DNA of 64,000 nt from the NCBI GenBank assembly GCA_000002445.1, contig CP000071.1:256001-320000 (forward strand), given 5' to 3'. A program made the translations under genes and the position numbers. Of this stretch, positions 21,201 to 51,962 are shown piece after piece (positions within the stretch are counted from its first letter, which is position 1; every line of letters starts with the position of its first letter). Below the pieces are notes generated by a model that did not search any database, was not told the origin of the DNA, and saw nothing but the letters and a program-made list of their open reading frames with translations. The stretch is from Trypanosoma brucei. Lineage: Eukaryota.

Positions 21201-24031
21201 TTTTTTAGGTTCTGCTCAAATACAAAGAAAACAGGAGCGACGGGGTATTATATACCTCTTCTTCTTTTTGTAACCCTCTTGGCTTTTTTTTTTTAATGCA
21301 CGTTAATTCCTCAACCCCTCTCTTGTTGCTTGTGTTGTTGTTTTTCATCTTTTACATTTGTGAATGTAATGAAATGGATAACAATAATATTAAACAATAT
21401 TATTCAATCAAATAAGATAAAGCTTATACACACGGAGAGGCAACAGACAAAAAAGAAAAAAAAGAAAAACTGTCATAACCCTCCCTTCCTCCGCTCGAAT
21501 CTTTTGAACAAAACGAACCAAAAGAAAAAACAAAAAACGAATATAAAATGAATCAAAACACGAGCTGAGAAATTTAGAACACACGCGCAAAATGAAAAAC
21601 AGCAGAGCATAAGAAAAACAATAAAGGAGAAAAACGGAGGAAAAATTAATGTTAAGGTGAAGTGGAAGGAAAGGAAAAAAAACATATGAAGCAACAAAAG
21701 GGAGATTGGGGCAAAAAAAAATCAAAAAAACACAAGAAGCATTCAAAAGAAAAGCACATTATAAACTAATCAATTGATTACTGTTAAAAACAGACCAATC
21801 AAATCAGCATGGGCGCACATTTATACATAAATATAACAACATCATAACATTCATATATATGTTTATGTGCATATATTTTCACGTTTATATATATTTGTAT
21901 TTATATTTAAACATTTATTCGTGAGGAATTTTATATACTTCCCAGGTATCGCTCACATTCTCTTTTCGTCCTTCATCTATTTAGTTTGTTTCTTTTGTTT
22001 TATTACTGTTTTATTACTACTATTATTATTGCTTTTATTGTTATCTTGTTTTCATTGGTTTTTGTTGCCTCGGTCTCGTTTCATTTTGTCTTTTTTTTTT
22101 TCATTGCGGTTTCATTTACGTCAATCTATCTTCAACTTCGACGGTATTAACCGAGCGGCTACGAGAATATTCATGAGAATACAAAACATATATATATATA
22201 TATTATTTATTTAATTTAATTTAATTAATACGAAATAGGGTAAGATTAGGTAAATACAAATAAGATGAGTGAGTGTGATGGCCACTTCTGTATTTTTGCC
22301 TTTTTGTTTGTTTGCTTGTTTGTTTGTTTTTTTTTATTTTTTCCGTTTTCTTTTTATTTGCTTTGTTTTCTTTTCAGTTTGGTACCAATAAGGGAGAGAG
22401 AGAAAAAGAAACAACAAAATTAAAACTCCACAAACGAAAACGTTTGGATAGGAAAAGAAAGGACAAAAGGTTTTATAAGGAAAAAAAAACGATTATTTTA
22501 AGTAGAGAACGGCACACAAAAACAAAAGGGTGAAAAAGATAAGAAGAAAGGTAAAATATCATCGACTGGGTCGTTTTTTTTCTTTTCATTATTTATCAAT
22601 CGGGTTGTGTCTGTTTGGTGTTTGAAAATTTTTTAAATTTGTGTTTAATTCATTTGTTTCGTTTCTGCTTTTTTTAAAGAAAGAATCAACAATCAAACAA
22701 AAACGGCGTCGGCAAATAAAAAGAAACGGAAAGATAACAACAAGTATCGTAGACTAATTTTATATATTTATAAATATCCATACAAATATAGTGCTATATT
22801 AATATATATATATTTATTTATTTATTTATTTTGTTTCATTTAAATGTAAAAAGAAAAAAGAAGATTGAAACAAAAACGGAGGAAGGGAGGGAAACATATA
22901 ATCAATCAACAAGGGGTAAATAAGAAAAAAAACAAAAAAGAAATTGGCGGCAATGTTTTCCCTTTGCGTTGCTGTTGTTGTTCTTGGTCGTTTTTTTTTT
23001 GCTTTTACTTTGCTTACTTTAAAGCTGCTTTTTTAAAAAATCAATACAAAGCCCCCCCCCGGCCCCAAACATTTTGCTTCGCCTCATTTTATAATTCCCC
23101 AATTAGTTGCACATTTCATTTATTTGTACAACACCGACAAGAGCGCAAAGGAAGTGAGAGCGGGAGAGGAAAAAAAAGAAAAGGAAAAAGAAAAAGAAAA
23201 AACAATACGGGGAAACAAAAAGTGACACATCACGCCTCGACAATATTAGTCATGAAATAATATTTGTATTTCTCGTTCATACTCCTCCTTCGATACCTTT
23301 TTTTTTTTTTCCCCCTCCCGCTTCTTTCTCATTTTCATATTCATTCCCATTTCCCTTTCTTCCATCTTCCTTTCTCTATCACTCTCCCCATTTTATTTAT
23401 AATTATATAAATAAATATATACATATATATATATATATATATTTATTCTTTCCAACTTTGTATGCTCTTACAAACACAAATACGCACAAATATATTTATA
23501 TATGTATTTATATTCATATAAATATATAAATGTGAATGTACATACCTGTGTGCAATTGAATGATTGGCGGAATATACATATATTTATTTATATTATTATT
23601 TTTAGTGCATTTGCAGCACGAGGTCAATTGCTCCTCTTCCTCATCGTCATCATCGTCGTTATTCATCTTCATTTTCTTTTCTTTCCTTCTTTATTCCTCC
23701 ACCACTACCTTTCCCATGCCTACCCTCGCCTTCCCCTCTTTATTCTTACCACCATTATAATAATATAACGCAACATAACATAAAATAACATATCATATAA
23801 TTATTATTTATTTAATATCATTAGTCAGTTTATCAATTGGCATTTGTTATTACTTGATACTTGGCATCATTTGGTGTCGTTTGGTGTTGTTGTTGCTGCT
23901 GCTGTTTTTTTTTCATTTTTTACTTTTTGCTTTTTTTGTGTACCAACACACACACACACACACACATATATACATATATATATCTAAAGATATATATATA
24001 TTACTGAAATCAATTAAATACATCTACTTCA

Positions 24032-24063
<32 letters not shown>

Positions 24064-27000
24064 ACGTGTCTGTATGTGTATTTCTACTTCATTTAATTAT
24101 TCTTTTTGTCGTTTGCTTTTTTATTTTATTTTATTTCCCCCTTCTTCCTCTTTAATATTGTGGTCACTACTGCTACTTTGTGTCACTGCTTCACCTCCCA
24201 CCCTCCGCTGCGTAATATATATATATATTTATTTATTTATATTAGTTCATCAATAGTTAAACTTATTTCAATTAATTTAATATTTTATTCCTTTTTCCTT
24301 TTCTTCCTCCTCTCTTATTAATTTATCCACATATTTTTGTACTTTCCTCCCGCATTCTTTATCTTCCTTCTTTTTTTTTCTTTTTTTTTTTTAGTTACCT
24401 CTTCCGATATCTCAATCGTACAAAAACAAAAAATGTTTTCTGCGGAAGAAAAAGAAAAACAGTACAAAATCGCTGGAGAATGGAAGCAATTAACGAATAT
24501 ATAAATATAAATATAAATATGTGAAATATAAATCGAAACGAAGGGATGGAGTGGAGTGGAGTGGAATGAAATGAAGTGGTGAAAAAAAAAAAAAAAGATG
24601 TTCGGACAAAACAAAAAAATGGAGAGAAATTTTTTATTAAAAGGAAAAAAAAGAAAAAAGAAGGTGGAAAAAGGCAACAAGCACTTCACAGGAAAATAAA
24701 ACAAATATGTGCATATGCAAAAAAAAAAACAACATTAAGGGAAGGAAAATAATAATAATAATAATAATAATAACAAGGATGATAAAAGAAAAAAAATGAT
24801 TTGCGCCCTTCTTCAATTACAACTATCCACCGGAAAAAAAACACACACACCACAACATTAATGTAAGTTATGTGTAAATAAATATATTTAAATATATTTA
24901 CTTATTTATTTCATTCGTTGAAATGCACTCGCTTAGAAATAATATACCGACTCCTATTAGTTAGTGTAAGTGAGCAGTCAATGATGTGATGATCGTGTTG
25001 GAATTTTATTAAATTAAAAAAAAAGAAAAAAAGAAATGATGAAACAAAAACCAAAAGAATGATAAACATTTAAATATTTATAATATATTAAGGTGTGTTT
25101 GTGTGTTTGAATGAGTGAATAAGTGAATGAGAAAGTCAACAAATGGAAATATTCCCCTTATATATATATATATATATTCTTTTTACTTTTTATTAAAATT
25201 CCATTCACCATTCCGCCCTCTCCCACACATACACTCAACCACGCACTTACATGGAATGCACCGCGTTATACAAATACATTTTAAAAAAAAAAAATTTATT
25301 TATAAAATATATAAATTGCGTATGCACCATATCAGTGCGTGAAGAAACCATGATGGCAACTCAACACTGTTGGCAGCTTGATCTGAGACAGAGAAACAAA
25401 ACACACAACAAAAAGAAAAAAAAAGGAAACTGAGTTACAGAGTAGAAACAAAATAAAATAAAAAAAGGGGGAAAAGCACAAGAAACACTATTGACAAGCA
25501 GCCCACCTTGTACTTAAATACAAGTGCATGCACTTATTCACTTATATATTTATTAATATTTAATTCTTAACGTATATACATTTTTACATATACCCTTCCG
25601 TTACATTGCGTTAACAATCATATTACAAATCCCTTCAGTACCCAAATTCCCTTGACTTTTATTCTATCTCTTCTTTCTCTTTTTCTTTTTTTTTTAAAAA
25701 AAAGGATTTTTTTTTCTTCATTTTCTTTTGTTTTTCTATTTTATTTTATTGTTCCTTTACAATTTTTGTTCGTGTTTAATTTCCCCTTTCCTCCCAATAC
25801 ATTTATTTAGACACAAACACACAAGCGGAAACAATTTTAAGACATTGCAACACAAATATAATTTACACACATACATTGAGATGGAAATGAAATGGGGACG
25901 TAAATTAATTATTTTATTTTTTTTCAAAAAAGGAAAGTGGAACCGAGTGGAGTTTATTTGAATGAGAGAAAAAAAATTTAAAGAAAAAAAACACACAAAA
26001 AAAACTAACAAAGACGGGAAAAGGAAACAGGGGAAAAAAAAAAGCAGCAGCAGCAGCAAGAGGTGAAGCAGTGAAAATAAAAATACAACAACAAAATCGC
26101 AACAATAACAGGAAAAAAAAACAAACAAGAATAATAAGAAAAAAAAAACATTTACGGATAAGTAATGGAAAACAAAGAAAAAAAAATTATAAAAGAGCAC
26201 AAGAAAAGACAAGAGAGAGAGAGAGAGGGAAAGAAAAAAAAACAGTTAAAAAACAAATAAATAAATAATAATAATAATAACACAAACGCAAAAAACAGAG
26301 ACGAAGTAAAAAAAAGAAAAAGAAAGAAAAAGAGGAAAGCTTAAAGCAGGCATGTTAAAAATATAAGAAAAGAGCGGAATGGAGTGAAATGGAATGGGAA
26401 CAGAAGGAAGAATCGTGCTTTTATTTCTTTTAGTTGTTGTTGTTGTTTTCTTTTCTTTTTTTTTTGCATGCAACTTTTTATTTATTTGTTCGATTGTTTA
26501 ATTTAGTTCATTTCTTCTTTTAAAAAAAAATGATTCGTTTTCCTTCTTTTTCTTTCATTGGTGTTTTATTTTTGCTTTGTTTTTTTTTGTTATTATTTTT
26601 TTTAACTATTTTTTGTTCTCCCATTGCATTTTCTTTAGGTTGTGAAGTGTGACGGTGGTTACGAATGGTAAAGGGAAAAAAAGGGGGAAAAGAAAGAAAG
26701 AAAGAAAAAGAAAAATGAGGGAGAAGATAAGCAAAAAGTATTTTTCTTTTTTTTTTAAAAAAAAACAAAAGTAAAAGTAAAAGAAGGAGCAATATATCAC
26801 AAATTTCTCTGTTGTTCTTTTTTTTTCTTTTTTTTCCCCCTCTTTTCCCCTTTTTTTTTTCTGTTTCTCTTTGCTTTTATTTTTATCTCACCTTTTTTAT
26901 TTACGCCCCACCCCCCATTCCCACGTAAACACACCGTTATGTTTCATTTCAACAATCTTTCAAAAGGGAACTCCAACAGGAAGAATAATAAAGATAATAA

Positions 27001-27742
27001 AGATAATGAAAAAGAGGAAGAGGAGCAAAAGCCCACGCAGCCCTGATAAAACAGCAGGTAAACGGGGGGGGAAAAAAAGGAGCAACATCAAAAAAAAAAA
27101 GAAAGAAATCAAAATAGGAACGTGAAAAATAAATAAATAATAATAATAATAATAAAACAAAAATAGTGATCGACAGTTATGTCAAACACATAGGGATTAG
27201 TAGATAAGACAACTTAAAAGAAAAGGAAAATGGAAACCGCCAGAAAATGAAAAAAAGGAAAAGATATAAAGTCAAATATAAAAAAAAAAGGAAACAAATG
27301 TCAAAGGAAAATGACGTGCGTCAAGCGAAACATTGGCCCACTACCAATAACACCCTCTTGGTTCTACAGGTTATGGGGAAGAAAAACAATAAACGAACAA
27401 GATAAGCAATAAAGGAAAAGAACAAAAAAAAACGAAAAACGAAAAGAACCCAGTCGGGTGGAGGAAACAGGAATAAACAAGAACGTAGGAGAAAACGAAA
27501 ACGAAAGTAAAGAAAATAATAAAGCAGATGCTCCTCCTGTCGCGGCAACGAGGAAACATCCATATCATGTCCCCTTCGGAACACTCTCGGGGGGGAATAC
27601 AAACGGAAACTCTCATATTTATGCGCAATCTCCAAAATGAAAACTTCCACTCTAACTTCTTGTTCGGTCGATTGGTTTTACTCCTCGTCAGGCTCATGTC
27701 CGTGTAACGTAACAGGTATTAAAATTGGAGAAGGAAAAGAGT
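15263..27742. other. 12.5-kb ORF-free, AT-rich, microsatellite-dense tract inside the unidirectional cluster
   Basis: The region has no ORF over 150 aa, and the few ORFs of 100-151 aa are poly-F/L/K low-complexity strings. It contains (CA)n, (TTTA)n, (AAT)n, (TA)n, (CAG)n and poly-A/T tracts. Confidence 0.7.
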
Positions 27743-29873: not shown

Positions 29874-30356
29874 CTACTCCCCATCATTGAAAGGTGGTGC
29901 ACCAGCTTCAGTAATAGCATACATACGTGCAAGTGAGTTATAACCCATTACGTCTCCTGCGCGTAGCAAATTTCCCGCGTCGCAGTTGAAGGGGCTTCTG
30001 GCGTCAGGTTCCGTTAGCAAACTAATGATTGCACGACAAACACTGGAAATAGTCCACGCAGGAGACCACCGACTTTTCAAAATATCAAGGCACACAGCGC
30101 CCGTATCGAAGTTAACATTAGGATGAAAAACTTTCGTCACAAACCACGCAACGGGAGGCACCATTGGGTAATCCGGTGGTATTTGTAAACGAAGACAAAA
30201 ACTACCACCTTCATACGGTGTGTCTGGAGGTCCATCTAACACCGCTTCCCATGAAAATAAATTATTTGATTCCGCCAGCTTTAGCACAACATCATTGTCA
30301 GGGTCACGCTGAACTTCTTTTAGCTCTTTCGAAAGCCGGCTGATGGGGCACGGCAT
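29874..30356 (-). CDS. Ubiquitin-conjugating enzyme E2 (UBC fold), 160 aa from ATG at 30356; an alternative upstream ATG at 30392 would add 12 aa
   Basis: HPN motif followed by the catalytic Cys (FHPNVNFDTGAVCLDIL) and an E2 N-terminal helix (RLSKELKEVQRDP). The track start at 30446 is a TTG. Confidence 0.88.
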   Translation of the reverse strand: MPCPISRLSKELKEVQRDPDNDVVLKLAESNNLFSWEAVLDGPPDTPYEGGSFCLRLQIPPDYPMVPPVAWFVTKVFHPNVNFDTGAVCLDILKSRWSPAWTISSVCRAIISLLTEPDARSPFNCDAGNLLRAGDVMGYNSLARMYAITEAGAPPFNDGE

Positions 30357-31094
30357 AACAACAGTTATTAAACTCCTACAAACTCTACACATATCATCAC
30401 AGAGGTTTTTTAAAAAAAAAAATGTAAGAAGCTCAATTACGTACAAACAGGAAGTTAGTTACACAAATTGAAGCTTGTAATAAGAAACACAACAATAGCG
30501 TAAAAGGAATACATGACAGGCAAAAGCCTACAACTCCACAACAAAGGCATAATACAGTTGTATGTATAAACCAATTAGAGAAAGTTGGATTGTTTGTTTT
30601 TTTTTTTTTTAAGGCCAAACAAACACAGTTCCCCACAAAAAAAGTTTCTTCACCCACACAATTAAAAAAAAAGGAACAGCTCCCCCCCCAAAAAAAAAAA
30701 ACTGCTCTCTTTCGCATCAAACCGACAAGGAAAACGCACCGAAATCTACAGGAGTGGAAAAAAAACAATAATATAAAATTTTAAAAAAAGAAAAAAAATA
30801 CAATCCTTTACAACTCTCCAAAAAAAAATTTTAGATGAAGAAAAAAAGTGTATAATACTCTTAAAAACAGGCTTTGCATGGAACTGAAAAAAATATTTAA
30901 AAAAAAAGTTGCAAACACAGAGGTAGTTAAAAAAAAAATACAAAGTATATAACATTACAACTCTAGTTTTTTTTAATTGGCAACGATAAAACCATAACGA
31001 GAAGCCTTAAGTAACACCCAACAATGACACGTTTGCGTGTATGTAATCCCTCACGCTAATCCTTGGCTGCTACACCGAAACGGTACTACTTGGA

Positions 31095-32507
31095 CTACAA
31101 AAGACCAACTAATGTGAAAGTAAGGGAAAATAATAATAAGCGTAAATTGTGGTTCTTATTGCTTGCTGCACTTCCCATTGAAGACAAACGACCTTCACCA
31201 AACTCGATCAGAGAAGCAACTCCAGCCACCTCCATCGTTTTATTCAGTTTGACCTCTTTTCTCCGCACGGCAATGCTGGCAATAGTAATCAGCTGTGTGG
31301 ATGTATTCAGATCTTCAAGCATATGAGAGACCACACGTGTGTCACTCTCCAGTCGCTCCGAGAGATTTGGAAAGTTGTCCATAAGTTTCTTCCTCATATC
31401 ATCCAGAGATTTGGGTGTCACCACCCAAGCTGTTTCCCCGCACACCTCAGCAGCCTTCTTTGCTTTCTCATCTGCAGCATTTCCAGCTATCTTCCTTAGC
31501 GTATTTTCCATGAGTGGTAGGTAATGAGCCCTTATACTTTTGAGATTCCTTGCATACCTGCTTACCTTCTTAAACACATTCTGTGCTTTACTTACTGCTT
31601 TCGCAACCTCAGCAACGGCCCGCTTCACCTGATCCATGTGTCCCCCCGGACGCTTTGCATCCGCTTGGCTCCGTTCCTCCACTTTAGAAACCATTGCAGA
31701 ACGGCTCACAGCTTGCTCCGTGAATGCGTCCACTGCACCTTTTAGGCCTCTGTACTGCTCAACCATCAAACACACTGCTTGTGTCTGATTCAGAGTAAGA
31801 TTGTACTTTCTGGTGATAGAGGCCTTTGTTCCCTCGACCAGTTCCTTCACCGTAGACTCACCTTTGAGCGCCACCGACCTCCAAGTAACGACATTGTAGA
31901 GCACAAACTCCAGCTTCCACAGCTCCCCGGAACTTTCCCGGGTGTCATCCTCCAAACCTTCCGAAGCACCCTCAGGTAACGTACTAAACAACTCCAACAG
32001 CGTACCGTTAAGGGAATCGGAAGACACGCTTTCAGCAGCTCCCTTGCATTTTTCAGCCGCGCTCCTGACTCTCCAATTGGAATTGTGTCCTGCCACCTCC
32101 TTCAACATGCGCTCTAACGCTGCTATACGATTGCTCCTGATCTCTTCAATATTCTCCGCCCTAAACTCAGTCTCAATGGATGCGGTTTCAGCTTTCTTGG
32201 CGGCCTCAGTAACGTTGGAAGCAACACGCTTCGCACGCTCGACGGGATCGGTGGCATTTCTGTTCTCCCACAAGACATCCTCAGCCAAAGTTACATATTC
32301 ATCACTCCGAGTCTTGGCATTCGATATCTTCAATGATTCGGTAGTTATCCAATATTTTAGGTCACGGACGGCATCTTTCAGTCCCCTGAACTGCTTCAGA
32401 GCATTACACAATGTAACAGTTTGCTCAAGTGTAAGATTATTGTTCTTACCAACAGCAAATGGCATGCACAGGAGTACAACTGCTGTGAAACAGGTGAATC
32501 GCGTCAT
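31095..32507 (-). CDS. Ala/Lys-rich predicted alpha-helical secreted protein with signal peptide and C-terminal hydrophobic GPI-anchor-type tail (array copy 1, 470 aa)
   Basis: The track start is a TTG; the first ATG gives MTRFTCFTAVVLLCMPFAVG, a classic signal peptide. The body is helix-favouring (A, K, E, L) with several NxS/T sites. The C-terminus GSAASNKNHNLRLLLFSLTFTLVGLL looks like an omega site plus hydrophobic tail. Confidence 0.8.
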   Translation of the reverse strand: MTRFTCFTAVVLLCMPFAVGKNNNLTLEQTVTLCNALKQFRGLKDAVRDLKYWITTESLKISNAKTRSDEYVTLAEDVLWENRNATDPVERAKRVASNVTEAAKKAETASIETEFRAENIEEIRSNRIAALERMLKEVAGHNSNWRVRSAAEKCKGAAESVSSDSLNGTLLELFSTLPEGASEGLEDDTRESSGELWKLEFVLYNVVTWRSVALKGESTVKELVEGTKASITRKYNLTLNQTQAVCLMVEQYRGLKGAVDAFTEQAVSRSAMVSKVEERSQADAKRPGGHMDQVKRAVAEVAKAVSKAQNVFKKVSRYARNLKSIRAHYLPLMENTLRKIAGNAADEKAKKAAEVCGETAWVVTPKSLDDMRKKLMDNFPNLSERLESDTRVVSHMLEDLNTSTQLITIASIAVRRKEVKLNKTMEVAGVASLIEFGEGRLSSMGSAASNKNHNLRLLLFSLTFTLVGLL

Positions 32508-32900
32508 TTGGCTCAACTCTCTCTTGGATGTGGAAATCTTGGAATGATGTTTCGTCTACAAAATGGTAAGGAAAGATAGCAACAAAAGTTGATACTATGC
32601 ATGAAATGACACGGAGAAAATGAGACCAACTGGAAGCCATAATTAGTCACTTATGCACAAGGCACAACATCTTTACGGAAAACACAACTAAAGTCGTTGA
32701 CATACATGGACTACACAACACAGAAGCAGTGATGTATATGACAGTATGCCTCAGTCACACTTCCATATGTGCATGCACGCTCATAAGCATTGCCAACTTT
32801 CTTGTTGTTCGTATCTTATCCATTCATAAAACATCCCCAACAGAGTGGCATCCATTGACAGCATGCGGTAATAAGTGCCTCCAGCAGCTGTCAGACAAGA

Positions 32901-35900
32901 TTAGTTGTGCGACGAATCACATGAGAGAGAAACATTGCTTTCCTCATCGTGATTGGGATACGCCTGCGCTTCGTCGACGGATGCCGCATGCGGATTATGA
33001 AAAGGTGGTGTGTCGTATACAGGCAGCACAGTGACTCCTTCACCGTCAACATGGGTGTGCCCGCTGTAATTTATAGTGTCTCTGCCACGAGTCGCAGTTG
33101 AGTTGAAGGGAAGCACAACGGCTTGGGGTAGTGGTAGAGGAATCGAGCGCATGGCCTGCTGCAAACGGACATAATCACTAAACTCGGCATCAACTATCGC
33201 CTGCCACTCCTCTTCCTCCCAGTTCACGAGCCGCATACGCCGCCCAGCCTCGCTTTCAAGCATAAACGTCGACTCCTCGTAGAAGTGCTGTGTAGTGGTG
33301 TAACTCATCATGTCATAACTCGTGAGCCGCGACGTATCATGAACGTCCGTCGACATCTCTGACATGGTATCATGAACGGAAACCTCGATTTCCTCACGTG
33401 TTTGCGATTGCAAGCGCCGACGCTGTGAGGCACGCCTCATATAAATGGCATTCAGCAGGTCCGGGTGATCTGCCGGTACAGTCACAGGTATTGGATTGAC
33501 ATTCACACCCCTGCCAGTCGGACCCTCATACATGCTGAATTCTCCACTGTAGTCAAATTGTAGTTCCAGTTCCTTTGCATCCACGCGGATACGCTCAATA
33601 CCGTCTGTAAAGACAAGCGCCATGTTGTAGCGGTCCCTCGCCTCCTGTAATGCGATCTGATCACGATCATCACACTCTTGCTCCTCGACAGAAGTCCAGT
33701 CCGCCCTCCCAGGAAAGTCACCGCCCCACGCAAAGTCGTCAACACCCGATGTCATGCCATCGATCATCGTCCTCGCGGTGGTATTGGTATTGGGGGAACC
33801 ATCACCAGAGTAGAACCCCAGAAGCAGTGGGTTGTTACCGCTTTCCAAATATTCGGGGTCGGGAGATGTTCCACTGATACAAGACATGTCGAGATTGTCC
33901 AGCTGCATCTTATCTGCAACGACAAGTTGTCGCTCCTCCTTCTCCTTAGAGCAGCATCGTCGCAAAAAGCACACGGCAAGCAACAACAGCAGCAGAAACA
34001 GCAACACAGCTGCCACAATAATGGCAATCACCGCCCCCATTCCCAATGGACCCCAAGCAGACCCACCACATATATCCCCACTTGCCTTCACATTACCCAA
34101 AGTAACGCAGTAGGTATTGTCTGTGAGGTCCCATGCGCAAACACTGAACTCCGTGCCCGCGGGGTAGTCTCTAATTTTGTTGTGGTTCATCCTCAACTTA
34201 CACTTGCCATCTGAGCCCTCACTGGCTTCCCCGACGGTGACGCCCTTGTCAGTGGGGTTGCAACAGTCACCCTTGATCACACGCACAACCGTCTGGCGGT
34301 GGGAAGAGTCCGGTGCACGGCACGACTCGAGTGGTGTCACCTTACAAGGTTCCACTATCGAAGGAAATACACTGACGGGTGGAATGAAGCGGAGGCTAGA
34401 GCTCAAAGGGACACTGACGACTGAACGGTTGACAGGAGTGGTAGCGCAGAAATATATCGAGTCCGTACCATTTTGCGCGGTAACAGAAACACGGCGGGCG
34501 CTTGCCGCGTCATCATCACCCACCAGTGCCCAACTTCCATGTGATTCATTTCGACGCAGGCAACTTCTGTCTGTGCTAAAACCGGGAAGCAAGCTCTCAG
34601 CATACAGGTCGTCCATCAAGTACAGAACGCCAGGAACACCAAGAAGGACGTCTCTCCCACGAATATTGTAATACGTAGGGTCAAATGTCTCAATCTGCGC
34701 AATCGGGAGGAGCTGCTTTGCCGAAGCAACACGTGCTGCTATCCCATTAGCGCTTATTTTCACAATTTTGGGACGCGTCGCACTGCCGTCAAAAACCTCC
34801 TGGCAGAGCGTCCACACACCCGCGGATGGTAACCCGGCCGCATTCACGTTCTTGAACGATATATTACCACGCGCCTCCTCGTCAGTCGTAAAGAATGGCA
34901 CCACGTCCTCACCACCACAGGAAGCATCTCGCCGCAGACGAAATGCTGAGTTTGGCGACAGAGGAATGTACACCTCTGCCTCCGTCCCCAGAACAAATGA
35001 CGACGGAAAGATGATATCAGTAGAAACCTCCACTTCCGATACAACACTGAGGTTCCCGGCGGGGGTCCCAACGCACAACGACACGGAAGGCAACCTCCCT
35101 GGAATGAAGGTCGGACCCAGTACAACGCTGCCGCTCGGCCGCACGTAACCCACAGAGTTCCCCGTCAGAGTGGTTGCGCACGCATTTTCGGAGAGATATA
35201 CGCCACGAAAGTCGGAGTTGTGTAGATACGCAAGTGGGTTCTCTGCGTCTTCCCCGGGCACTAACGAGTACAATGGCTTTGCTCCAGAGACCACAGGTGT
35301 CTGCAGTTTTGCGTGAAACCGAGCAGTGGGAACCGCCGCAGGATCGATCTTCTTCACGATGGGCGGAGTTATGATGAGAACCTCCGCTACTGGTATTGGA
35401 GGCGAGGTGGGTTGTTCCCCCAATACACATACACATTTCACGCCTGAGATACCTATTAGCGTAACCGCCTCCTCAACTGGGGTCTCTGCAAGACCGGGGG
35501 CCGCCACAATCTTCTCGCCACACACCGCGCAATCGCTTAGGTACGTGTCCGGTGTTCGGGTAGCGTAGTTCATCACTAAGTTCGCAGGCCCTAGCACCTC
35601 GCTGTCGCTATCCACACGTCCATGAATGCTAGGGTTCACAACACGGAAGTTTTCCACTGAAAGCGTCGGGCCATCTGTTGTGAAGACATACCCAGGATCC
35701 CTTATTGTGTGTGTACACACATAAAACGTAAGATTCCGATTGTACCGTGGCGTCATTGTGGCTCTGCTCTGACTAAGTACTCCATTGCAGTCACTCCTTG
35801 TGGAAAGAAAGGGACTGGTAAGGATCGCCTTGTCAATGCCATAGTCGGTTACTTGTTTCGCTGGAAGCGCCGTCACCGGCCGTACCGCAGGCTGCTTTCC

Positions 35901-38900
35901 ACCGGGGCATTCATCTAAGTGAATCAGTTGCATAGTCCCACGCATAACATACCCACCGCTTTCCCCACGCTCACAATAGTACACATCTGTCAGATCACGG
36001 TTCCGGTATTTGCACTTATCCACATGCAGCGTTGACATAGAGTTGGCTATGACCGTGTCGTACTCACTCAAGATACTGTCAGTACACGCTTCTAAGGTGG
36101 AGATCCTCACCCTCCCACTTTGAATGCCACTGGACTCCACGGTCACACTGCGACCTGCAATAATCGTCGCAGGAGTCATGTAGTGAAAAATATTGAAAGT
36201 AGATGCAGGCAACTTATCATACGCAGAAATACCGACACACACCCTGGCACCCTTCGCCACAGCTGGCGTCTTCACAATGGTAACATCCTTACTGTGTTCG
36301 CCGGAAGCAAAGGGAAAACTGTCATACGAAGCATTCGCCTCTGTGCAGTTAAGCTCTGGGGGGACAATGTAAACGGTGAGATTCGACGCCCCTATATGCA
36401 AGCTACCCCCATCAAGGGTCAAGCGAAGAGGTGTGTGCTTCCGTACGAGTGACACATTAAAGGACGCCGTAAACGGGTTAATCACCTTAAGGGGCTTCTG
36501 ACCAACAGCAACTCCCAAACGCCGCTCATCCTGCTGACACAATGCATATTCGCCTAGTAGAACATCCTCCAAGGGAGTAGTTGGCCCAGTGTAGTAGCGC
36601 TCAGTCGCCTCCTCACAAATCCTTGCATTCAGTGGGACTTTGCAGGAAGCGGCGTTGACACAGCGCACGAGGAACAAAGATGCCTTCTTAAGCAGCGGTC
36701 TTGCCACAAAATTATTCGTTGACCTACGGACAGCGTACAGAGAATCCACAGCAAAATCCTCAGCACTTACCTTCCCTCCGTACAAGTAATACGATTCATT
36801 GGTATCACCCCACCCCACGCAAACATGCAGTTCGCCAGCCTTCTGAACCACAAAAGGTTCTGCACTCCCACTTATGGGGTCAACCCAACCCTCACCGTAC
36901 ACCCTAATGCCACCACCGGGGGCACTTTGGCACGACTCAATGCTCTCGCTCACAAGAAAGCGTGTTGGCTGCAGCGCAGTCAGCGCCTCTCCTCGAAACC
37001 TCATGCTGAGGGGAAGACCAACAACGCCAATAGGTGAATCCGGCACAAGCTCTAGCTGCTGCTGTGACTGAATTAAACCTACATCTTCGTATCCATTCCC
37101 CTTCCACAGGCATACCTTCCATTTCTTCATACCAACAGCTGTGTAGACCACATACGCCGGACCCACTTCAGTAATTCTAATAGCAACGGCAGTACCATCA
37201 TCCACAATTTCGCCACAGTTCACATCACTCGTTTCCTTAAAAAGCACCTTCAGACCTTTGAGGGAGGTCTTATCAGGTACAATAAAATTGACTCGATTGC
37301 TTACGCCAACGAACACGGTCCTGGGGAATACCTCCACATCGGAAACAGCTAACATACCCGATACCCTCACTTTCCAGGCACCCCCATCACTGTCATGGTA
37401 ACCAACACATACGTACACCTTGCCAACTGTGTTGCGCATCACCGTCACGGACGCCTCCCCTTCAGCCGTTGCATTTACCTCAGAAATGGATGGTGTGCAG
37501 CTCTCACTTTCACTGAACACTATGGGCGCCTCAGGCGGTACGGCGGACACCTTGACGGGTGTACTGACACCTTTTACAATGGAAGCCGGCGACAACTCCG
37601 CAGGACCGTATACCATGACATTCCCAACGTTCGAATAGGGGCGATTCACAGGATGTTCCGTGCCCGGTGTCTTCACACACAGCACATGTCTACCCGCAGT
37701 AGAAAACGCAACGCCGTACAGGGCAGTTGCATTCATGGAGTATGTCTCCCCGACTGGTGTAAGGCAATTATCCAGGGAGAAATACCCGGTTGTTCCTGCC
37801 TTGAGAGTCACGTTGGCATCAAGATGAATCGTCTCAGCCACACCCACGAAAAGGGTCCGGTGTTTCAGTTTGTATCGCCGCGTCGCAATATTCTTCACAG
37901 GGTAGGTATATCCCTCGTCAGGTTCCTCGTCCGCTTGTAGGTCGACAGATGAGGGAGTCGCGACACACAAAGTCATGTTCGGGAGTGCGTCCTCAGGAAC
38001 TCGAAACGTGACAGAACTTGCGCCAACTCTCACATCACCTTTTGAGTTGAGTTCCTCACACTCCGGGGTTACCGATAAACCAACCGTTATCACACCACTC
38101 CGCCCCGCATTGTGGCCGCTCAACAAAACCGTCAAATCAAGTCCACTGATCACGTTGGCTTCATCAAATGATACCGTCGGTGGCGGCAGAACTGTCACAA
38201 CAGCCGCACGCGCCTTGGGGTATGCAGTCGTGCTCCCCTCAAGACACGCGTAGTACGTACCTGAAACAGGTAAGGCAACTGCACCCCCATCCGAACGCGA
38301 GCGACGCTTCTTTACTGGGGGGCCCCGATATTGGATTCCTGATGGACCATCCACACGCACAGCCCCTGTACAGTTGGAATACATGTAGAAATCAAGCACC
38401 AACTTCACATCGTTAGCAGCTGCAGTCGCTGCATCCATTGTATACTTAATGCGAGTCCCGTACCCACTGTATAGGGTCCGTGGCTGAACGCCGTACTCCC
38501 GAACAGTTACCTTGTTCTCAGATGGTGAATATAACCTGCCACCCTTGTGGTAGGGCCAACCATTACACAGAAAATAGTCACCTTTAGGCACAGAAACCTC
38601 CATATTAACAACCTGCAACGTTTCCCCACCCACGGGGTCCTGAAGGATCGGATCACATAGGGGTGACTGAGAAAAAGTTGCCCACACGAGGTTGCCTACA
38701 GCCTCCAAGCGAAATGTTTCGTTCGTGTGCCGAAGTGCATCAGTGTTGTTCGTGTCATAACGTGGCACAGCAAGTAACACAGAGGCAGGAACGACGAAAG
38801 TTTTGCCATCACTCGTGGGTACCTTAGCACAAAGATAAATTACGCTTTGGACACTCCGTGTCACTCTCACCTCCCGGTTAGAACCCAGTTCGGCAGGTGG

Positions 38901-39485
38901 CAGACCTTGAATCATGCTCACGTCGTCACAGTTTTCATTGCGGTGAAATGTAATGAAGGTTCCAACAGGCACTGCGTCGCCGAATCGAATAGTGTTGTCA
39001 ACATCACGTTTCAAATAGCGTGGTATGGCTTCAACAAGGCTCAGCTGCACAGACAAAGAAAGGGAGGGAAACGCATCACCAGCACATATATACACTTCAC
39101 GTACTTTCGTATCGTACCACGGGTCAATGCCCACATCATTGCTCGTAACCGTGAAATTACATGGCGCATTCTTGGATATTTTGCACTTGGAGCCAATGAT
39201 CTGTGTATTGTCACATGTACTCATACGCGAAACGAAAATATCTGCTTTGATACTCTGGTCCGTCGTTTCCACACTGAACGGTACGTTCACCAGCGGTTTG
39301 TTAGGTCGTAACACAAGTGATGCAGCTCCACTGCTGCATAAAAACGTTGACGACACGATGCACAGAACTGAAGCCCAAAAAGTAAAGGGCACCTTACAGC
39401 AATGTCGGTAACGTGGAGATAGAGAGGAAGCATGGCTGGTACCTGTGCCACAGTGGGTTGAGTCCCTTCTTAGAAACATTTGCAT
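32901..39485 (-). CDS. Giant type I membrane glycoprotein with a modular cysteine-rich ectodomain, one TM helix and a ~340-aa cytoplasmic tail (array copy 1, ~2194 aa)
   Basis: An uninterrupted 6.6-kb ORF. The first ATG is at 39485 (the track TTG start is at 39494). A hydrophobic signal segment (FTFWASVLCIVSSTFLCSSGAAS) follows a ~30-aa N-region. The ectodomain has more than 40 Cys and many NxS/T sites. The TM segment GAVIAIIVAAVLLFLLLLLLAVCFL is encoded at about 33940..34030, followed by a basic stop-transfer (RRCCSKEKEE). Confidence 0.8.
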   Translation of the reverse strand: MQMFLRRDSTHCGTGTSHASSLSPRYRHCCKVPFTFWASVLCIVSSTFLCSSGAASLVLRPNKPLVNVPFSVETTDQSIKADIFVSRMSTCDNTQIIGSKCKISKNAPCNFTVTSNDVGIDPWYDTKVREVYICAGDAFPSLSLSVQLSLVEAIPRYLKRDVDNTIRFGDAVPVGTFITFHRNENCDDVSMIQGLPPAELGSNREVRVTRSVQSVIYLCAKVPTSDGKTFVVPASVLLAVPRYDTNNTDALRHTNETFRLEAVGNLVWATFSQSPLCDPILQDPVGGETLQVVNMEVSVPKGDYFLCNGWPYHKGGRLYSPSENKVTVREYGVQPRTLYSGYGTRIKYTMDAATAAANDVKLVLDFYMYSNCTGAVRVDGPSGIQYRGPPVKKRRSRSDGGAVALPVSGTYYACLEGSTTAYPKARAAVVTVLPPPTVSFDEANVISGLDLTVLLSGHNAGRSGVITVGLSVTPECEELNSKGDVRVGASSVTFRVPEDALPNMTLCVATPSSVDLQADEEPDEGYTYPVKNIATRRYKLKHRTLFVGVAETIHLDANVTLKAGTTGYFSLDNCLTPVGETYSMNATALYGVAFSTAGRHVLCVKTPGTEHPVNRPYSNVGNVMVYGPAELSPASIVKGVSTPVKVSAVPPEAPIVFSESESCTPSISEVNATAEGEASVTVMRNTVGKVYVCVGYHDSDGGAWKVRVSGMLAVSDVEVFPRTVFVGVSNRVNFIVPDKTSLKGLKVLFKETSDVNCGEIVDDGTAVAIRITEVGPAYVVYTAVGMKKWKVCLWKGNGYEDVGLIQSQQQLELVPDSPIGVVGLPLSMRFRGEALTALQPTRFLVSESIESCQSAPGGGIRVYGEGWVDPISGSAEPFVVQKAGELHVCVGWGDTNESYYLYGGKVSAEDFAVDSLYAVRRSTNNFVARPLLKKASLFLVRCVNAASCKVPLNARICEEATERYYTGPTTPLEDVLLGEYALCQQDERRLGVAVGQKPLKVINPFTASFNVSLVRKHTPLRLTLDGGSLHIGASNLTVYIVPPELNCTEANASYDSFPFASGEHSKDVTIVKTPAVAKGARVCVGISAYDKLPASTFNIFHYMTPATIIAGRSVTVESSGIQSGRVRISTLEACTDSILSEYDTVIANSMSTLHVDKCKYRNRDLTDVYYCERGESGGYVMRGTMQLIHLDECPGGKQPAVRPVTALPAKQVTDYGIDKAILTSPFLSTRSDCNGVLSQSRATMTPRYNRNLTFYVCTHTIRDPGYVFTTDGPTLSVENFRVVNPSIHGRVDSDSEVLGPANLVMNYATRTPDTYLSDCAVCGEKIVAAPGLAETPVEEAVTLIGISGVKCVCVLGEQPTSPPIPVAEVLIITPPIVKKIDPAAVPTARFHAKLQTPVVSGAKPLYSLVPGEDAENPLAYLHNSDFRGVYLSENACATTLTGNSVGYVRPSGSVVLGPTFIPGRLPSVSLCVGTPAGNLSVVSEVEVSTDIIFPSSFVLGTEAEVYIPLSPNSAFRLRRDASCGGEDVVPFFTTDEEARGNISFKNVNAAGLPSAGVWTLCQEVFDGSATRPKIVKISANGIAARVASAKQLLPIAQIETFDPTYYNIRGRDVLLGVPGVLYLMDDLYAESLLPGFSTDRSCLRRNESHGSWALVGDDDAASARRVSVTAQNGTDSIYFCATTPVNRSVVSVPLSSSLRFIPPVSVFPSIVEPCKVTPLESCRAPDSSHRQTVVRVIKGDCCNPTDKGVTVGEASEGSDGKCKLRMNHNKIRDYPAGTEFSVCAWDLTDNTYCVTLGNVKASGDICGGSAWGPLGMGAVIAIIVAAVLLFLLLLLLAVCFLRRCCSKEKEERQLVVADKMQLDNLDMSCISGTSPDPEYLESGNNPLLLGFYSGDGSPNTNTTARTMIDGMTSGVDDFAWGGDFPGRADWTSVEEQECDDRDQIALQEARDRYNMALVFTDGIERIRVDAKELELQFDYSGEFSMYEGPTGRGVNVNPIPVTVPADHPDLLNAIYMRRASQRRRLQSQTREEIEVSVHDTMSEMSTDVHDTSRLTSYDMMSYTTTQHFYEESTFMLESEAGRRMRLVNWEEEEWQAIVDAEFSDYVRLQQAMRSIPLPLPQAVVLPFNSTATRGRDTINYSGHTHVDGEGVTVLPVYDTPPFHNPHAASVDEAQAYPNHDEESNVSLSCDSSHN

Positions 39486-41521
39486 AAATACCAAACGCTA
39501 CAACAACCTTCTCAGTACTCGCTTATTCCCTTTCTCTCAACGTGTATGCCTTTATGCTCTTGCAGAAAACTATTTACGGTGTGCGTATTCGCCAACCCGC
39601 GTAAACCTAAGACGATTGTGCACAGACTCCTCTGTCTCTGTCTCTCACACTAGTTCCTTACCACGCGACCCGTTTAAGAGGGAAGTGGCTAAACTATGTA
39701 AGGTGCTTATGGAATTACTACGGTACTGACCTTCACTTATCTTCGTGTACTCCGTTTAACTTTCAATTGCCCCTCCGCAGTGATGAACTCTTTTGTTTGA
39801 TTTCTTCTATGGTTGCTTCTATCCTCAGTTACTATGAAGATACAGCTGTATCTATTACCTCCGTTACTCGACAAAAATGTTTCCCCGGTGAAAAAGGGAT
39901 GTGCCTCTATGGATATACAAATGTATGAGTCCACAAATGTATGGATATGCAGGTGTAGAAAATATGCGACCCTACACGTACAGCTTTTCTATGTAACGTC
40001 CTGTTGAAATGGTCCTCGTTTACTCTTATTTGTGCTTTCTCGTATCGTTGTCGATCTCCTTCCCGTTCCACAACAGACTTTTCTCGCAATATCGCTCGCC
40101 TGTGTATCGGTAAATCAATTCACAAAACACCTTTATGGTAGGAACGGTATATCAAACTGATGAATATTTAGTGTGCGAAGCTTGAGGCTACGCTACTGAT
40201 CAATGCGGACAACACGTCGGGCAGAAAACTACAGAAACTAAAACAAAAGGGCTAAAAATGCGGTAAAAAAATCTATAAACCTATGTAAATGATGGTAGCG
40301 ATATATTGTCAGAGCTGCTTCGCGAAACAGAAATGGCAACTGAATGGCTAACTAAAAAAAACAAAAAAGATCTAGCAGTAATATCGCGCTGCTTCTGCAC
40401 AACGTCTAAAGTGTGATGCACGGAAAGGAAGTAGTTTTTCAAGAGAAGTGCACACAAAATGGTAAGCACATGGGTGAGGAATGCGCTCCATAGACATCAA
40501 TGAATAAACCCCGCGCACACAAGCAAGTGAAACGACATATCAAAAGAAGTTACAATGCAACACTTAAAGAGTACAACATGTGCTGGTGAAGTAACAAAAC
40601 CCACACATTCACTTTTTAAAAATGGTCAAAAGATATAATGCCCCTGAATTTATTAAGAAGAGGTGGGCATCAGGGTAGCACAGGCGGATACAACTCCAGG
40701 CCAAGAGGGCAACAAAGACATATGAACTGCAAGTGCAAACAATTACTATAATGTTTTACATTTAGCAACCGACACACTATAAATGACCACAAGGGACTTT
40801 AACATGTCCCCGATAGATCCACCCACAATCGCTAAACGAAGTAATTCAAGCGAGCACATAAACTCACGGCAACATTCCAAGCGTAGCAAACACAATGTAG
40901 TGGAGAGCAGACGTACAGCACCTGGAAGGCGCCATCTCAAACTCGGTACTCACTAATACATACCACACAGCTGCACAGTTCAGTCATATAATGAACATTA
41001 AACGGTTATATATATAATAACTGCTACAATAAGGAAAAAAAGGGAGGGGGGAAAGGGAAGCAATTATGAAGTCAAGACTAAATTAATACTTTACATACAC
41101 AGCAGAGAATTGCACAATCTGTAAAGCGCTCACACATGTAAGTATACACAAGAAGGAGTAAACACTAAAATGAAAACACGGATGAAAATAATGAAGAAAC
41201 GCTAACGCACCTGCTCACCAACACAACATAGCAGTCTACATTGCTGTATATGTGATGTGCATAAAATGTCGAGAAACTAGGAACAAACACTAAATAAAGG
41301 TACCAGAATAGCCATGCCGATACTTTAAAAGAAAAAAAGAATTTATAAAAAAATATATTAGGATCATGATTAGCATATAAAAGTGAAAACGCTATTGAAA
41401 ACAATGGCAACGATAAAACCATAACGAGAAGCCTTAAGTAACACCCAACAATGACACGTTTGCGTGTATGTAATCCCTCACGCTAATCCTTGGCTGCTAC
41501 ACCGAAACGGTACTACTTGGA

Positions 41522-42934
41522 CTACAAAAGACCAACTAATGTGAAAGTAAGGGAAAATAATAATAAGCGTAAATTGTGGTTCTTATTGCTTGCTGCACTT
41601 CCCATTGAAGACAAACGACCTTCACCAAACTCGATCAGAGAAGCAACTCCAGCCACCTCCATCGTTTTATTCAGTTTGACCTCTTTTCTCCGCACGGCAA
41701 TGCTGGCAATAGTAATCAGCTGTGTGGATGTATTCAGATCTTCAAGCATATGAGAGACCACACGTGTGTCACTCTCCAGTCGCTCCGAGAGATTTGGAAA
41801 GTTGTCCATAAGTTTCTTCCTCATATCATCCAGAGATTTGGGTGTCACCACCCAAGCTGTTCCCCCGCACACCTCAGCAGCCTTCTTTGCTTTCTCATCT
41901 GCAGCATTTCCAGCTATCTTCCTTAGCGTATTTTCCATGAGTGGTAGGTAATGAGCCCTTATACTTTTGAGATTCCTTGCATACCTGCTTACCTTCTTAA
42001 ACACATTCTGTGCTTTACTTACTGCTTTCGCAACCTCAGCAACGGCCCGCTTCACCTGATCCATGTGTCCCCCCGGACGCTTTGCATCCGCTTGGCTCCG
42101 TTCCTCCACTTTAGAAACCATTGCAGAACGGCTCACAGCTTGCTCCGTGAATGCGTCCACTGCACCTTTTAGGCCTCTGTACTGCTCAACCATCAAACAC
42201 ACTGCTTGTGTCTGATTCAGAGTAAGATTGTACTTTCTGGTGATAGAGGCCTTTGTTCCCTCGACCAGTTCCTTCACCGTAGACTCACCTTTGAGCGCCA
42301 CCGACCTCCAAGTAACGACATTGTAGAGCACAAACTCCAGCTTCCACAGCTCCCCGGAACTTTCCCGGGTGTCATCCTCCAAACCTTCCGAAGCACCCTC
42401 AGGTAACGTACTAAACAACTCCAACAGCGTACCGTTAAGGGAATCGGAAGACACGCTTTCAGCAGCTCCCTTGCATTTTTCAGCCGCGCTCCTGACTCTC
42501 CAATTGGAATTGTGTCCTGCCACCTCCTTCAACATGCGCTCTAACGCTGCTACACGATTGCTCCTGATCTCTTCAATATTCTCCGCCCTAAACTCAGTCT
42601 CAATGGATGCGGTTTCAGCTTTCTTGGCGGCCTCAGTAACGTTGGAAGCAACACGCTTCGCACGCTCGACGGGATCGGTGGCATTTCTGTTCTCCCACAA
42701 GACATCCTCAGCCAAAGTTACATATTCATCACTCCGAGTCTTGGCATTCGATATCTTCAATGATTCGGTAGTTATCCAATATTTTAGGTCACGGACGGCA
42801 TCTTTCAGTCCCCTGAACTGCTTCAGAGCATTACACAATGTAACAGTTTGCTCAAGTGTAAGATTATTGTTCTTACCAACAGCAAATGGCATGCACAGGA
42901 GTACAACTGCTGTGAAACAGGTGAATCGTGTCAT
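41522..42934 (-). CDS. Ala/Lys-rich GPI-anchor-type surface protein, array copy 2 (2 aa differences from copy 1: I->V, E->G)
   Basis: Identical to copy 1 except for two substitutions, at a 10,427-bp offset. Confidence 0.8.
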   Translation of the reverse strand: MTRFTCFTAVVLLCMPFAVGKNNNLTLEQTVTLCNALKQFRGLKDAVRDLKYWITTESLKISNAKTRSDEYVTLAEDVLWENRNATDPVERAKRVASNVTEAAKKAETASIETEFRAENIEEIRSNRVAALERMLKEVAGHNSNWRVRSAAEKCKGAAESVSSDSLNGTLLELFSTLPEGASEGLEDDTRESSGELWKLEFVLYNVVTWRSVALKGESTVKELVEGTKASITRKYNLTLNQTQAVCLMVEQYRGLKGAVDAFTEQAVSRSAMVSKVEERSQADAKRPGGHMDQVKRAVAEVAKAVSKAQNVFKKVSRYARNLKSIRAHYLPLMENTLRKIAGNAADEKAKKAAEVCGGTAWVVTPKSLDDMRKKLMDNFPNLSERLESDTRVVSHMLEDLNTSTQLITIASIAVRRKEVKLNKTMEVAGVASLIEFGEGRLSSMGSAASNKNHNLRLLLFSLTFTLVGLL

Positions 42935-43327
42935 TTGGCTCAACTCTCTCTTGGATGTGGAAATCTTGGAATGATGTTTCGTCTACAAAATGGTAAGGAA
43001 AGATAGCAACAAAAGTTGATACTATGCATGAAATGACACGGAGAAAAGGAGACCAACTGGAAGCCATAATTAGTCACTTATGCACAAGGCACAACATCTT
43101 TACGGAAAACACAACTAAAGTCGTTGACATACATGGACTACACAACACAGAAGCAGTGATGTATATGACAGTATGCCTCAGTCACACTTCCATATGTGCA
43201 TGCACGCTCATAAGCATTGCCAACTTTCTTGTTGTTCGTATCTTATCCATTCATAAAACATCCCCAACAGAGTGGCATCCATTGACAGCATGCGGTAATA
43301 AGTGCCTCCAGCAGCTGTCAGACAAGA

Positions 43328-51832: not shown

Positions 51833-51962
51833 TGGCAACGATAAAACCATAACGAGAAGCCTTAAGTAACACCCAACAATGACACGTTTGCGTGTATGTA
51901 ATCCCTCACGCTAATCCTTGGCTGCTACACCGAAACGGTACTACTTGGACTACAAAAGACCA
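51833..51962. repeat. Partial third repeat unit (3' flank of the surface gene, ~130 bp) preceding the mosaic paralog
   Basis: Identical to 30978..31107 and 41405..41534, then diverges abruptly 3 codons before the stop of the paralog. Confidence 0.9.

Follow-up and report, generated by a model that had tools for sequence, protein, structure and literature searches.

Introduction

FCP1 (Tb927.8.940) serves as reference marker for the flagella connector (PMC6529878), which is found in procyclic forms of Trypanosoma brucei (PMC6529878, PMC11555346). The protein has been assigned to zone 3 of the connector, where dense material fills the space between the new and old flagellar membranes (PMC11555346). 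It localises to the connector and its depletion causes premature flagellum release (PMC6529878, PMC9826329, PMC11555346). FCP1 is credited to Varga et al. 2017, as cited in these three papers (PMC9826329, PMC6529878, PMC11555346). A nearby gene, Tb927.8.960, is reported to encode a palmitoylated protein whose level increases towards the end of differentiation and in procyclic cells (PMC4765897).

The Fam50 glycoproteins (BARP, GARP, CESP and MISP) are the second described system of relevance here. The chromosome 8 members of the family in T. brucei form clade 'ii', which is sister to CESP of T. congolense (PMC3605285), and their relationship to CESP has also been reported elsewhere (PMC2739429). 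CESP has been proposed to be an adhesin, and another Fam50 member, Tb927.7.380, was located near the flagellar membrane upon ectopic expression (PMC3605285). For Tb927.8.930 and Tb927.8.950 a signal peptide and a GPI anchor were predicted, with positive results from both BigPI and FragAnchor, and the transcripts of these genes were enriched in the salivary gland (PMC3378594). On chromosome 7 of T. brucei, the MISP array contains five Fam50 genes that alternate with unrelated hypothetical genes (PMC10089363).

Genome-wide mapping of transcript ends in T. brucei gave a median length of ∼388 nt for 3'UTRs and of ∼130 nt for 5'UTRs, the latter including the 39-nt spliced leader, and a median distance of 142 nt (interquartile range 123-178) between the poly(A) site and the downstream splice acceptor (PMC2936537). 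Both genes considered in this work had already been described, and the region between them has the properties of an ordinary trypanosome processing region. A first-pass annotation of the locus had taken the tight pairing of a giant and a small gene to suggest a functional unit. Our analysis indicates that the 393-nt spacer between them is most probably an ordinary, compact inter-CDS RNA-processing region, which owes its short length to the way in which the locus was assembled during evolution.

Results and discussion

Gene order and intergenic distances

The window analysed here is a stretch of 64,000 nt from chromosome 8 of T. brucei brucei TREU927 (∼256-320 kb), and window coordinates equal the chromosome 8 position minus 256,000. 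We calibrated this offset on the published coordinate tables for PEX4, PAGM and Tb927.8.970, and the check took in the AG preceding two mapped acceptor sites. The long ORFs found in the window are without exception on the minus strand, where a single polycistronic unit carries, in this order, PAGM, Tb927.8.970, FCP1, Tb927.8.950, FCP1, Tb927.8.930 and PEX4 (Tb927.8.920). The array in the middle consists of two FCP1-containing units.

In unit 1, the stop codon of FCP1 copy 1 (32901-39485, minus strand) occupies 32901-32903 and the first ATG of Tb927.8.930 (31095-32507, minus strand, 470 amino acids) begins at 32507, which leaves a spacer of 393 nt (32508-32900). Unit 2, displaced by 10,427 bp, repeats this arrangement with FCP1 copy 2 (49912-43328), a spacer of again 393 nt (43327-42935) and Tb927.8.950 (42934-41522), which differs from Tb927.8.930 by 2 amino acids. 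The distance given in the first-pass annotation is therefore exact in both units. It is also the smallest of the 12 definable inter-CDS distances in the window (393, 393, 702, 733, 2036, 2037, 2134, 2422, 2705, 3537, 3639 and 12480 nt). The statement that the other distances amount to 1.5-3.5 kb is correct within the repeat but does not apply to the next two gaps downstream, which measure 702 nt (small gene to PEX4) and 733 nt (PEX4 to the next gene).

We scanned the entire window for Rfam families and tRNAs and obtained no matches, so the spacer contains no hidden RNA gene. We discounted a plus-strand ORF that reaches into the spacer (31942-32547), since it runs antisense to the small gene, has a GTG start and falls within a minus-strand transcription unit.

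The giant gene encodes FCP1 and the small genes encode tandem GARP-domain proteins

The product of the giant ORF is identical over its 2194 amino acids to XP_846931.1 of T. brucei brucei TREU927. Consecutive accession numbers and the named neighbours Tb927.8.930, Tb927.8.950 and Tb927.8.970 place the two giant copies as Tb927.8.940 (copy 1) and Tb927.8.960 (copy 2). The sequence does not differ from that of the published FCP1, and Tb927.8.960 is its second copy.

FCP1 has an N-terminal hydrophobic segment and one transmembrane span (amino acids 1815-1838), followed by the motif CFLRRCC and a cytoplasmic tail of 356 amino acids, as in a type-I membrane protein. The ectodomain contains ∼17 modules of ∼90 amino acids, each with a pair of cysteines. 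We modelled module 621-715 by AlphaFold2 with the internal repeats as alignment and obtained a predicted β-sandwich of 8 strands with a pLDDT of 89.3. A Foldseek search with this model returned only Ig-like domains (SoxYZ, intimin, LILR, a bacterial Ig-like adhesin domain and Pom152), with TM scores of 0.5-0.6 and marginal E-values of 1e-3 to 3e-2. By sequence, no Pfam family matched FCP1 at E ≤ 0.01, the Ig, Big and FN3 families included, and the search against solved structures found no relative. The cysteines within a module are ∼30-40 residues apart, compared with 55-70 in the classical fold. Since neither Pfam nor the solved structures provide a sequence match, the term 'Ig-like' is valid for the modelled FCP1 modules at the level of the fold only. 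With this qualification, the description of the giant protein as a membrane-spanning Ig-like rod is broadly correct.

We searched 1.84 billion proteins exhaustively by HMMER with FCP1 residues 1000-2194 and retrieved 30 representatives, the named ones all being trypanosomatid (Leishmania, Porcisia and Novymonas). In Porcisia, the locus tag of the homologue immediately precedes that of PEX4. FCP1 belongs to a trypanosomatid-wide family of giant membrane proteins with Ig-like repeats, which adjoin PEX4 wherever examined. The persistence of such a family beside PEX4 may be of interest to those who study flagellar junctions.

The small proteins match the Pfam family GARP (PF16731, curated cut-off 27.4 bits), Tb927.8.930 in two stretches with an E-value of 6e-69 and Tb927.8.970 with 1e-117. 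Searches against the PDB identified the structure of T. congolense GARP (2Y44, 3e-8) and 6XZ6 (2e-3). The translation shows hydrophobic N- and C-termini by eye, and the published signal peptide and GPI predictions (PMC3378594) agree with the earlier description of a GPI-anchored helical protein. The small protein is thus a two-domain helical-bundle protein of the GARP/Fam50 type. It shares with the other Fam50 glycoproteins the GARP domains, the predicted signal peptide and GPI signal, and the enrichment of its transcript in salivary glands, but unlike them the chromosome 8 proteins have two GARP domains in tandem.

The giant gene precedes PEX4 without a Fam50 gene in other trypanosomatids

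Direct searches with the giant or small proteins were saturated with hits from their own clusters, and we used PEX4 as the synteny anchor instead. The order in T. b. gambiense is PAGM, small gene, FCP1, 393 nt, small gene and PEX4. In T. vivax, an orthologue of 2,202 amino acids (42% identity over the full length) is followed after 1,343 nt by PEX4. T. cruzi has PAGM, a giant gene (2,184 amino acids, 37% identity over the full length), 1,197 nt and PEX4, and no Fam50 gene at the locus. In T. theileri and T. grayi, ∼2 kb separate the giant gene from PEX4; the intergenic regions of T. theileri and T. cruzi include small runs of N. The T. congolense contig is only 7.2 kb long and covers the region from the C-terminal part of the giant gene (56% identity) to PEX4, these two being 1,711 nt apart; the interval is free of N and has no same-strand ORF of at least 100 amino acids. 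L. mexicana encodes a shorter homologue upstream of PEX4. In T. rangeli the giant gene is absent from the locus.

The giant homologue thus directly precedes PEX4, with no Fam50 gene between them, in six other trypanosomatid species. A tblastn search with the three small proteins against the fetched PEX4 neighbourhoods gave a match at the T. b. gambiense locus only. Across the genus, the giant gene is kept without a downstream small gene, and of the species that we compared, only T. brucei has the tight downstream pairing. A second assembly of T. vivax contains, 1.7 kb upstream of the giant gene, a member of the GARP family whose C-terminus is of the GPI type.

These data suggest that the ancestral order, kept in other trypanosomes, was giant gene, 1.2-2 kb and PEX4, and that in the lineage of T. 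brucei a Fam50 cassette of 1,826 bp came to lie 97 nt past the stop codon of FCP1. A cassette in this position would account for a spacer made up of 97 + 296 nt, as described below. Cross-species blastn of the intergenic regions produced low-complexity pyrimidine matches only; it revealed neither the point of insertion nor any homology that would trace the 97-nt segment and the DNA between the small gene and PEX4 back to the ancestral FCP1-PEX4 spacer, so this model rests on gene order and not on flanking sequences.

The first-pass annotation had proposed that the giant and the small protein could form a receptor, a co-receptor or an adhesion complex; on this view, linkage and co-amplification would be selected for matched dosage. 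The types of protein are compatible with this idea. Both are proteins of the surface or flagellar membrane type, FCP1 being situated between two flagellar membranes; CESP is a proposed adhesin, Tb927.7.380 lies near the flagellar membrane when expressed ectopically, and the distance between the genes is the shortest in the window. However, the pairing is missing in all six of the species named above that retain the giant gene, and T. cruzi in particular has the giant gene and no Fam50 gene at the locus. Moreover, in the polycistronic units of trypanosomes adjacency is not in general a sign of shared function. Together with the gene ratios and mRNA changes reported in the next sections, this makes such a complex very unlikely, and we infer that the two proteins do not interact.

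The Fam50 cassette probably explains the repeat structure and the change in copy number

By self-comparison, the tandem array (30978-51962, minus strand) consists of two units of 10,427 bp (30978-41404 and 41405-51831) and a further 130 bp that match the start of a third unit (51833-51962). The segments 30978-41534 and 41405-51962 are 99.9% identical across 10,558 bp and differ by 8 substitutions and 1 indel. The two 393-nt spacers, which differ by one substitution, hence stem from one recent duplication and count as one observation, not as two independent ones.

Near-identical repeats of 10.4 kb are hard to assemble, and T. b. gambiense has a single unit, so we considered that the duplicated unit, and with it the repeated pairing, could be an artefact of the TREU927 assembly. 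Against this, the sequence differences between the units include the 2 amino acid changes in the small gene, each copy has its own gene model and accession, and the independent T. b. gambiense assembly also contains the 393-nt spacer. We regard an artefact as extremely unlikely. Conversely, the single-unit structure of T. b. gambiense could be due to assembly collapse.

Comparison with T. b. gambiense defined the boundaries of the Fam50 cassette. The sequence duplicated on either side of FCP1 in that subspecies is exactly 1,826 bp long and comprises a 5' arm of 296 nt, a CDS of 1,413 nt and a 3' arm of 117 nt. The same boundaries delimit the Tb927.8.930 and Tb927.8.950 copies in TREU927; for Tb927.8.930, the 5' arm lies at 32508-32803 and the 3' arm, which forms the end of the repeat unit, at 30978-31094 (both minus strand).

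The upstream paralog Tb927.8.970 (51950-53329, minus strand, 459 amino acids) is a mosaic that carries the ends of the cassette. Its 5' patch of 506 bp (53120-53625, corresponding to 32298-32803) and its 3' patch of 130 bp (51833-51962) enclose a diverged paralog, and overall its protein is 41% identical to that of Tb927.8.930. Within the 5' patch, identity is 100% for 296 nt upstream of the ATG (53330-53625, corresponding to 32508-32803) and for the first 210 nt of the CDS, and then stops. The mosaic gene had been thought to retain the whole spacer as its 5' flank; it retains the 296 nt of the cassette arm but lacks the 97 nt on the FCP1 side (32804-32900).

Removal of the 10.4 kb that separates the two 506-bp patches in TREU927 would give the locus of T. 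b. gambiense. The giant and small genes number 2 and 3, respectively, in TREU927, and 1 and 2 in T. b. gambiense DAL972. Ratios of 2:3 and 1:2 do not agree with the claim that the two genes are amplified strictly together, and they speak against selection for a matched 1:1 dosage of the subunits of a complex.

Related Fam50 sequences bracket FCP1 and allow unequal homologous recombination, and for this reason FCP1 and a small gene are amplified together: co-amplification is a mechanical result of the repeat structure. If the upstream and the downstream Fam50 gene recombined at their homologous 3' ends, the TREU927 array would result, in which the unit extends from the 3' arm of one cassette to that of the following one, and a crossover between the 506-bp 5' patches of Tb927.8.970 and Tb927.8.950 would yield the T. 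b. gambiense structure. Recombination of this kind would duplicate or delete the block of FCP1 plus small gene in one piece, giving two units in TREU927 and one in T. b. gambiense; the direction and the order of the cassette duplication and conversion events we infer. The MISP array on chromosome 7, which we compared by its description, is similar in that a Fam50 gene and an unrelated neighbour are co-amplified as a tandem unit, but its neighbouring genes are not known to be FCP1-like.

The value of these results lies mostly at the level of annotation. They give a clear structural account of the locus, with a cassette flanking FCP1 and copy-number change through unequal recombination, and they caution against deducing a shared function from the adjacency and co-amplification of genes in trypanosome polycistrons.

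FCP1 and Fam50 mRNAs change in opposite directions

We compared the expression of the genes using published normalised read counts of fly-derived parasites (PMC8483307, S4 and S5 Tables), in which the per-copy values of near-identical genes have to be read with caution. The counts in midgut, proventriculus and salivary gland were 50, 150 and 338 for Tb927.8.930, 55, 160 and 428 for Tb927.8.950, and 69, 180 and 1197 for Tb927.8.970 (PMC8483307). The FCP1 copies had counts of 169 (Tb927.8.940) and 155 (Tb927.8.960) in the proventriculus and of 67 and 50, respectively, in the salivary gland; they have no listed midgut values and are not among the genes that differ between midgut and proventriculus (PMC8483307). 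From the proventriculus to the salivary gland, FCP1 mRNA thus decreased ∼2.5-3-fold and the mRNAs of the small genes increased 2.3-6.6-fold.

At the mRNA level, therefore, the small genes peak in salivary-gland forms, where FCP1 mRNA falls. These opposite changes are a further argument against a common complex, and they may still be compatible with an overlap of the proteins in some fly stages. The functional unit that had been deduced from tight pairing does not hold up at the level of gene order and mRNA, given that the pairing is not kept at orthologous loci and that the mRNAs of the two genes favour different stages. Opposite changes in neighbours 393 nt apart fit independent post-transcriptional control, in which FCP1 would serve the procyclic flagella connector and the Fam50 genes would be regulated separately and rise towards the salivary-gland stages.

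The spacer has the anatomy of a compact RNA-processing region

The spacer consists of two parts. The 97 nt adjoining FCP1 (32804-32900, minus strand) form the start of the FCP1 3'UTR and are present only in the two FCP1 units; the alignment with the 5' flank of Tb927.8.970 breaks at 32803/32804. The remaining 296 nt (32508-32803) are the 5' arm of the cassette, 100% identical to 53330-53625, and contain the FCP1 poly(A) site, a polypyrimidine tract, candidate AG acceptors and the predicted 5'UTR of the small gene.

Kolev et al. 2010 mapped a single poly(A) site for Tb927.8.960 at chromosome 8 position 299102, corresponding to a 3'UTR of 226 nt (PMC2936537, Table S13). Via the offset, this position is window coordinate 43102 in spacer copy 2 (42935-43327, minus strand), with the sequence context ...TTTTCCGT/AAAG, and its equivalent in unit 1 is 32675. 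The repeats make the mapping of short reads ambiguous, which affects this site as well as the per-copy expression values. Downstream on the minus strand follow a second pyrimidine-rich stretch (32597-32625) and the main polypyrimidine tract (32558-32588), which has 25 pyrimidines in 31 nt. The first AG past the tract (32556-32557) is the predicted spliced-leader acceptor, with an exon start at 32555 and a 5'UTR of 48 nt that would have no upstream ATG; further AGs are present at 32538/9 and in 32512-32524. As the first-pass annotation expected, the spacer contains a tract followed by AGs for trans-splicing of the small gene, the choice of acceptor among them being a prediction from the sequence.

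The 120 nt between the poly(A) site at 32675 and the first AG fit the published median. The spacer resembles trypanosomatid inter-CDS processing regions in that it lies between same-strand genes of a polycistronic unit and has a tract, then an AG, and an upstream poly(A) site ∼120 nt from the predicted acceptor. It is more compact than the published UTR medians would give, yet remains inside the reported ranges (PMC2936537). The spacer hence accommodates just the elements required between two trypanosome CDSs, namely a short 3'UTR, a tract and a short 5'UTR. The FCP1 pre-mRNA is polyadenylated within the cassette arm, and the first AG past the tract follows after ∼120 nt, as is usual in trypanosomes, where upstream polyadenylation is coupled to downstream trans-splicing.

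Published end mapping provides the FCP1 poly(A) site inside the spacer and, as the only acceptor record accessible to us for these genes, the 5'-most acceptor of Tb927.8.970 in procyclic forms at chromosome 8 position 309310 (PMC2936537, Table S1). This is window coordinate 53310, 19 nt inside the annotated ORF of Tb927.8.970, where TREU927 has no AG. Because reads at this position match three identical copies and expression of the gene in procyclic forms is very low, we treat the record as unexplained rather than as evidence against an acceptor in the spacer. In T. b. gambiense, both copies have AA in place of the first AG past the tract, and so the next AG (32539/8) may be the acceptor used.

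The same features could be read as a regulatory link between the two genes. Polyadenylation of FCP1 would depend on the Fam50 polypyrimidine tract, and processing choices in the spacer would tie both mRNAs reciprocally during development, in that procyclic forms would make productive 3' ends of FCP1 but splice Fam50 unproductively, and salivary-gland forms would do the reverse. The cassette arm does contain the FCP1 poly(A) site, at a distance of 120 nt from the first AG; an mRNA starting at the procyclic in-ORF acceptor of Tb927.8.970 would have neither start codon nor signal peptide; and the mRNA trends are opposite. However, the reference lacks an AG at the in-ORF site, which may reflect mere noise, the gene being poorly expressed and its reads multi-mapping, and Tb927.8.970 shows the same salivary-gland trend though it does not follow FCP1. 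Stage regulation in trypanosomes acts mostly via 3'UTR-dependent mRNA stability and translation, which would be enough for the observed trends. Altogether, we consider a regulatory link of this kind unlikely and favour a compact processing region between separately regulated genes.

A related idea, which appears quite unlikely to us, is that insertion of the cassette gave T. brucei FCP1 a new and very short 3'UTR, more than half of it cassette sequence, with polyadenylation dependent on Fam50 splice signals, and that this could contribute to procyclic-restricted expression. If true, such rewiring of the 3'UTR could help to make the flagella connector a speciality of T. brucei, and it could also couple the two genes in a reciprocal manner, with alternative processing events in the spacer competing with each other.

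FCP1 ectodomain and family distribution

About 17 Ig-like modules, each roughly 90 aa long, make up the ectodomain of the giant gene product FCP1 (window 34380-39311, FCP1 aa 59-1702). Every module carries a conserved cysteine pair spaced by 30-40 residues and the motif G-x-[YFW]-x-[VL]-C, and a Cys-rich segment adjoins the membrane. The family has just 30 representatives among 1.84 billion proteins. Homologues adjoining PEX4 are encoded in Leishmania, Porcisia, and Novymonas (L. mexicana locus L008, 2586-6317; proteins P0138, P0146, and P0152) and share about 30-34% identity with FCP1 across the membrane-proximal half. The flagella connector itself has been described as T. brucei-specific. 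The giant gene is kept in T. cruzi, T. grayi, and T. theileri, unlike at the T. rangeli locus (L012, 4488-7604), where it is missing and PAGM is followed directly by PEX4. In one T. vivax assembly, it is broken into two overlapping ORFs with an apparent frameshift (L002, 2050-8657); in another assembly (L003) it is unbroken and encodes 2,202 aa.

The T. b. gambiense locus

The locus of T. b. gambiense DAL972 (L001) lacks a gene of the Tb927.8.970 type, the mosaic paralog of TREU927. Both small genes bracketing FCP1 (L001 6254-8079 and 16683-18508) are of the Tb927.8.930 type, with 98% identity, and the locus corresponds to that of TREU927 without the 10.4 kb separating the two identical 506-bp patches. 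Either recombination or assembly collapse could account for this difference.

Splice acceptors and start codons

In TREU927, the first AG past the polypyrimidine tract in the spacer between FCP1 and the small gene lies at window 32556-32557; in both T. b. gambiense copies the matching dinucleotide is AA (L001 6500-6501 and 16929-16930). The 5'-most acceptor mapped for Tb927.8.970 in procyclic forms, window 53310, lies 19 nt within the ORF at a non-AG position (corresponding to 32488 and 42915 in the other small-gene copies). An mRNA beginning there would have neither start codon nor signal peptide, and the record may be noise, stem from a difference between strains, or reflect unproductive splicing.

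The annotated ATG of PEX4 (Tb927.8.920; start region 30356-30392, ATG at 30392) is located upstream of the mapped spliced-leader acceptor, with the exon beginning at 30384 and preceded by AG. The true start is probably the next ATG, from which PEX4 has 160 aa; its orthologues have 159-161 aa.

A GTG-initiated plus-strand ORF of 201 aa, antisense to the small gene, extends 40 nt into the spacer (window 31942-32547; second copy 42369-42974). The ORF at 31942-32547 is probably spurious, because the entire region is a minus-strand transcription unit.

A gene-poor AT-rich stretch

Between Tb927.8.900 (TSR1) and the Q-rich ORF Tb927.8.910 we observed a 12.5-kb AT-rich stretch with few genes (window 15263-27742), a GC content of about 0.28-0.33, and numerous short A/T-rich microsatellites. 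The Tb927.8.910 3'UTRs of 2.6-4.9 kb (PMC2936537, Table S13) span just part of it.
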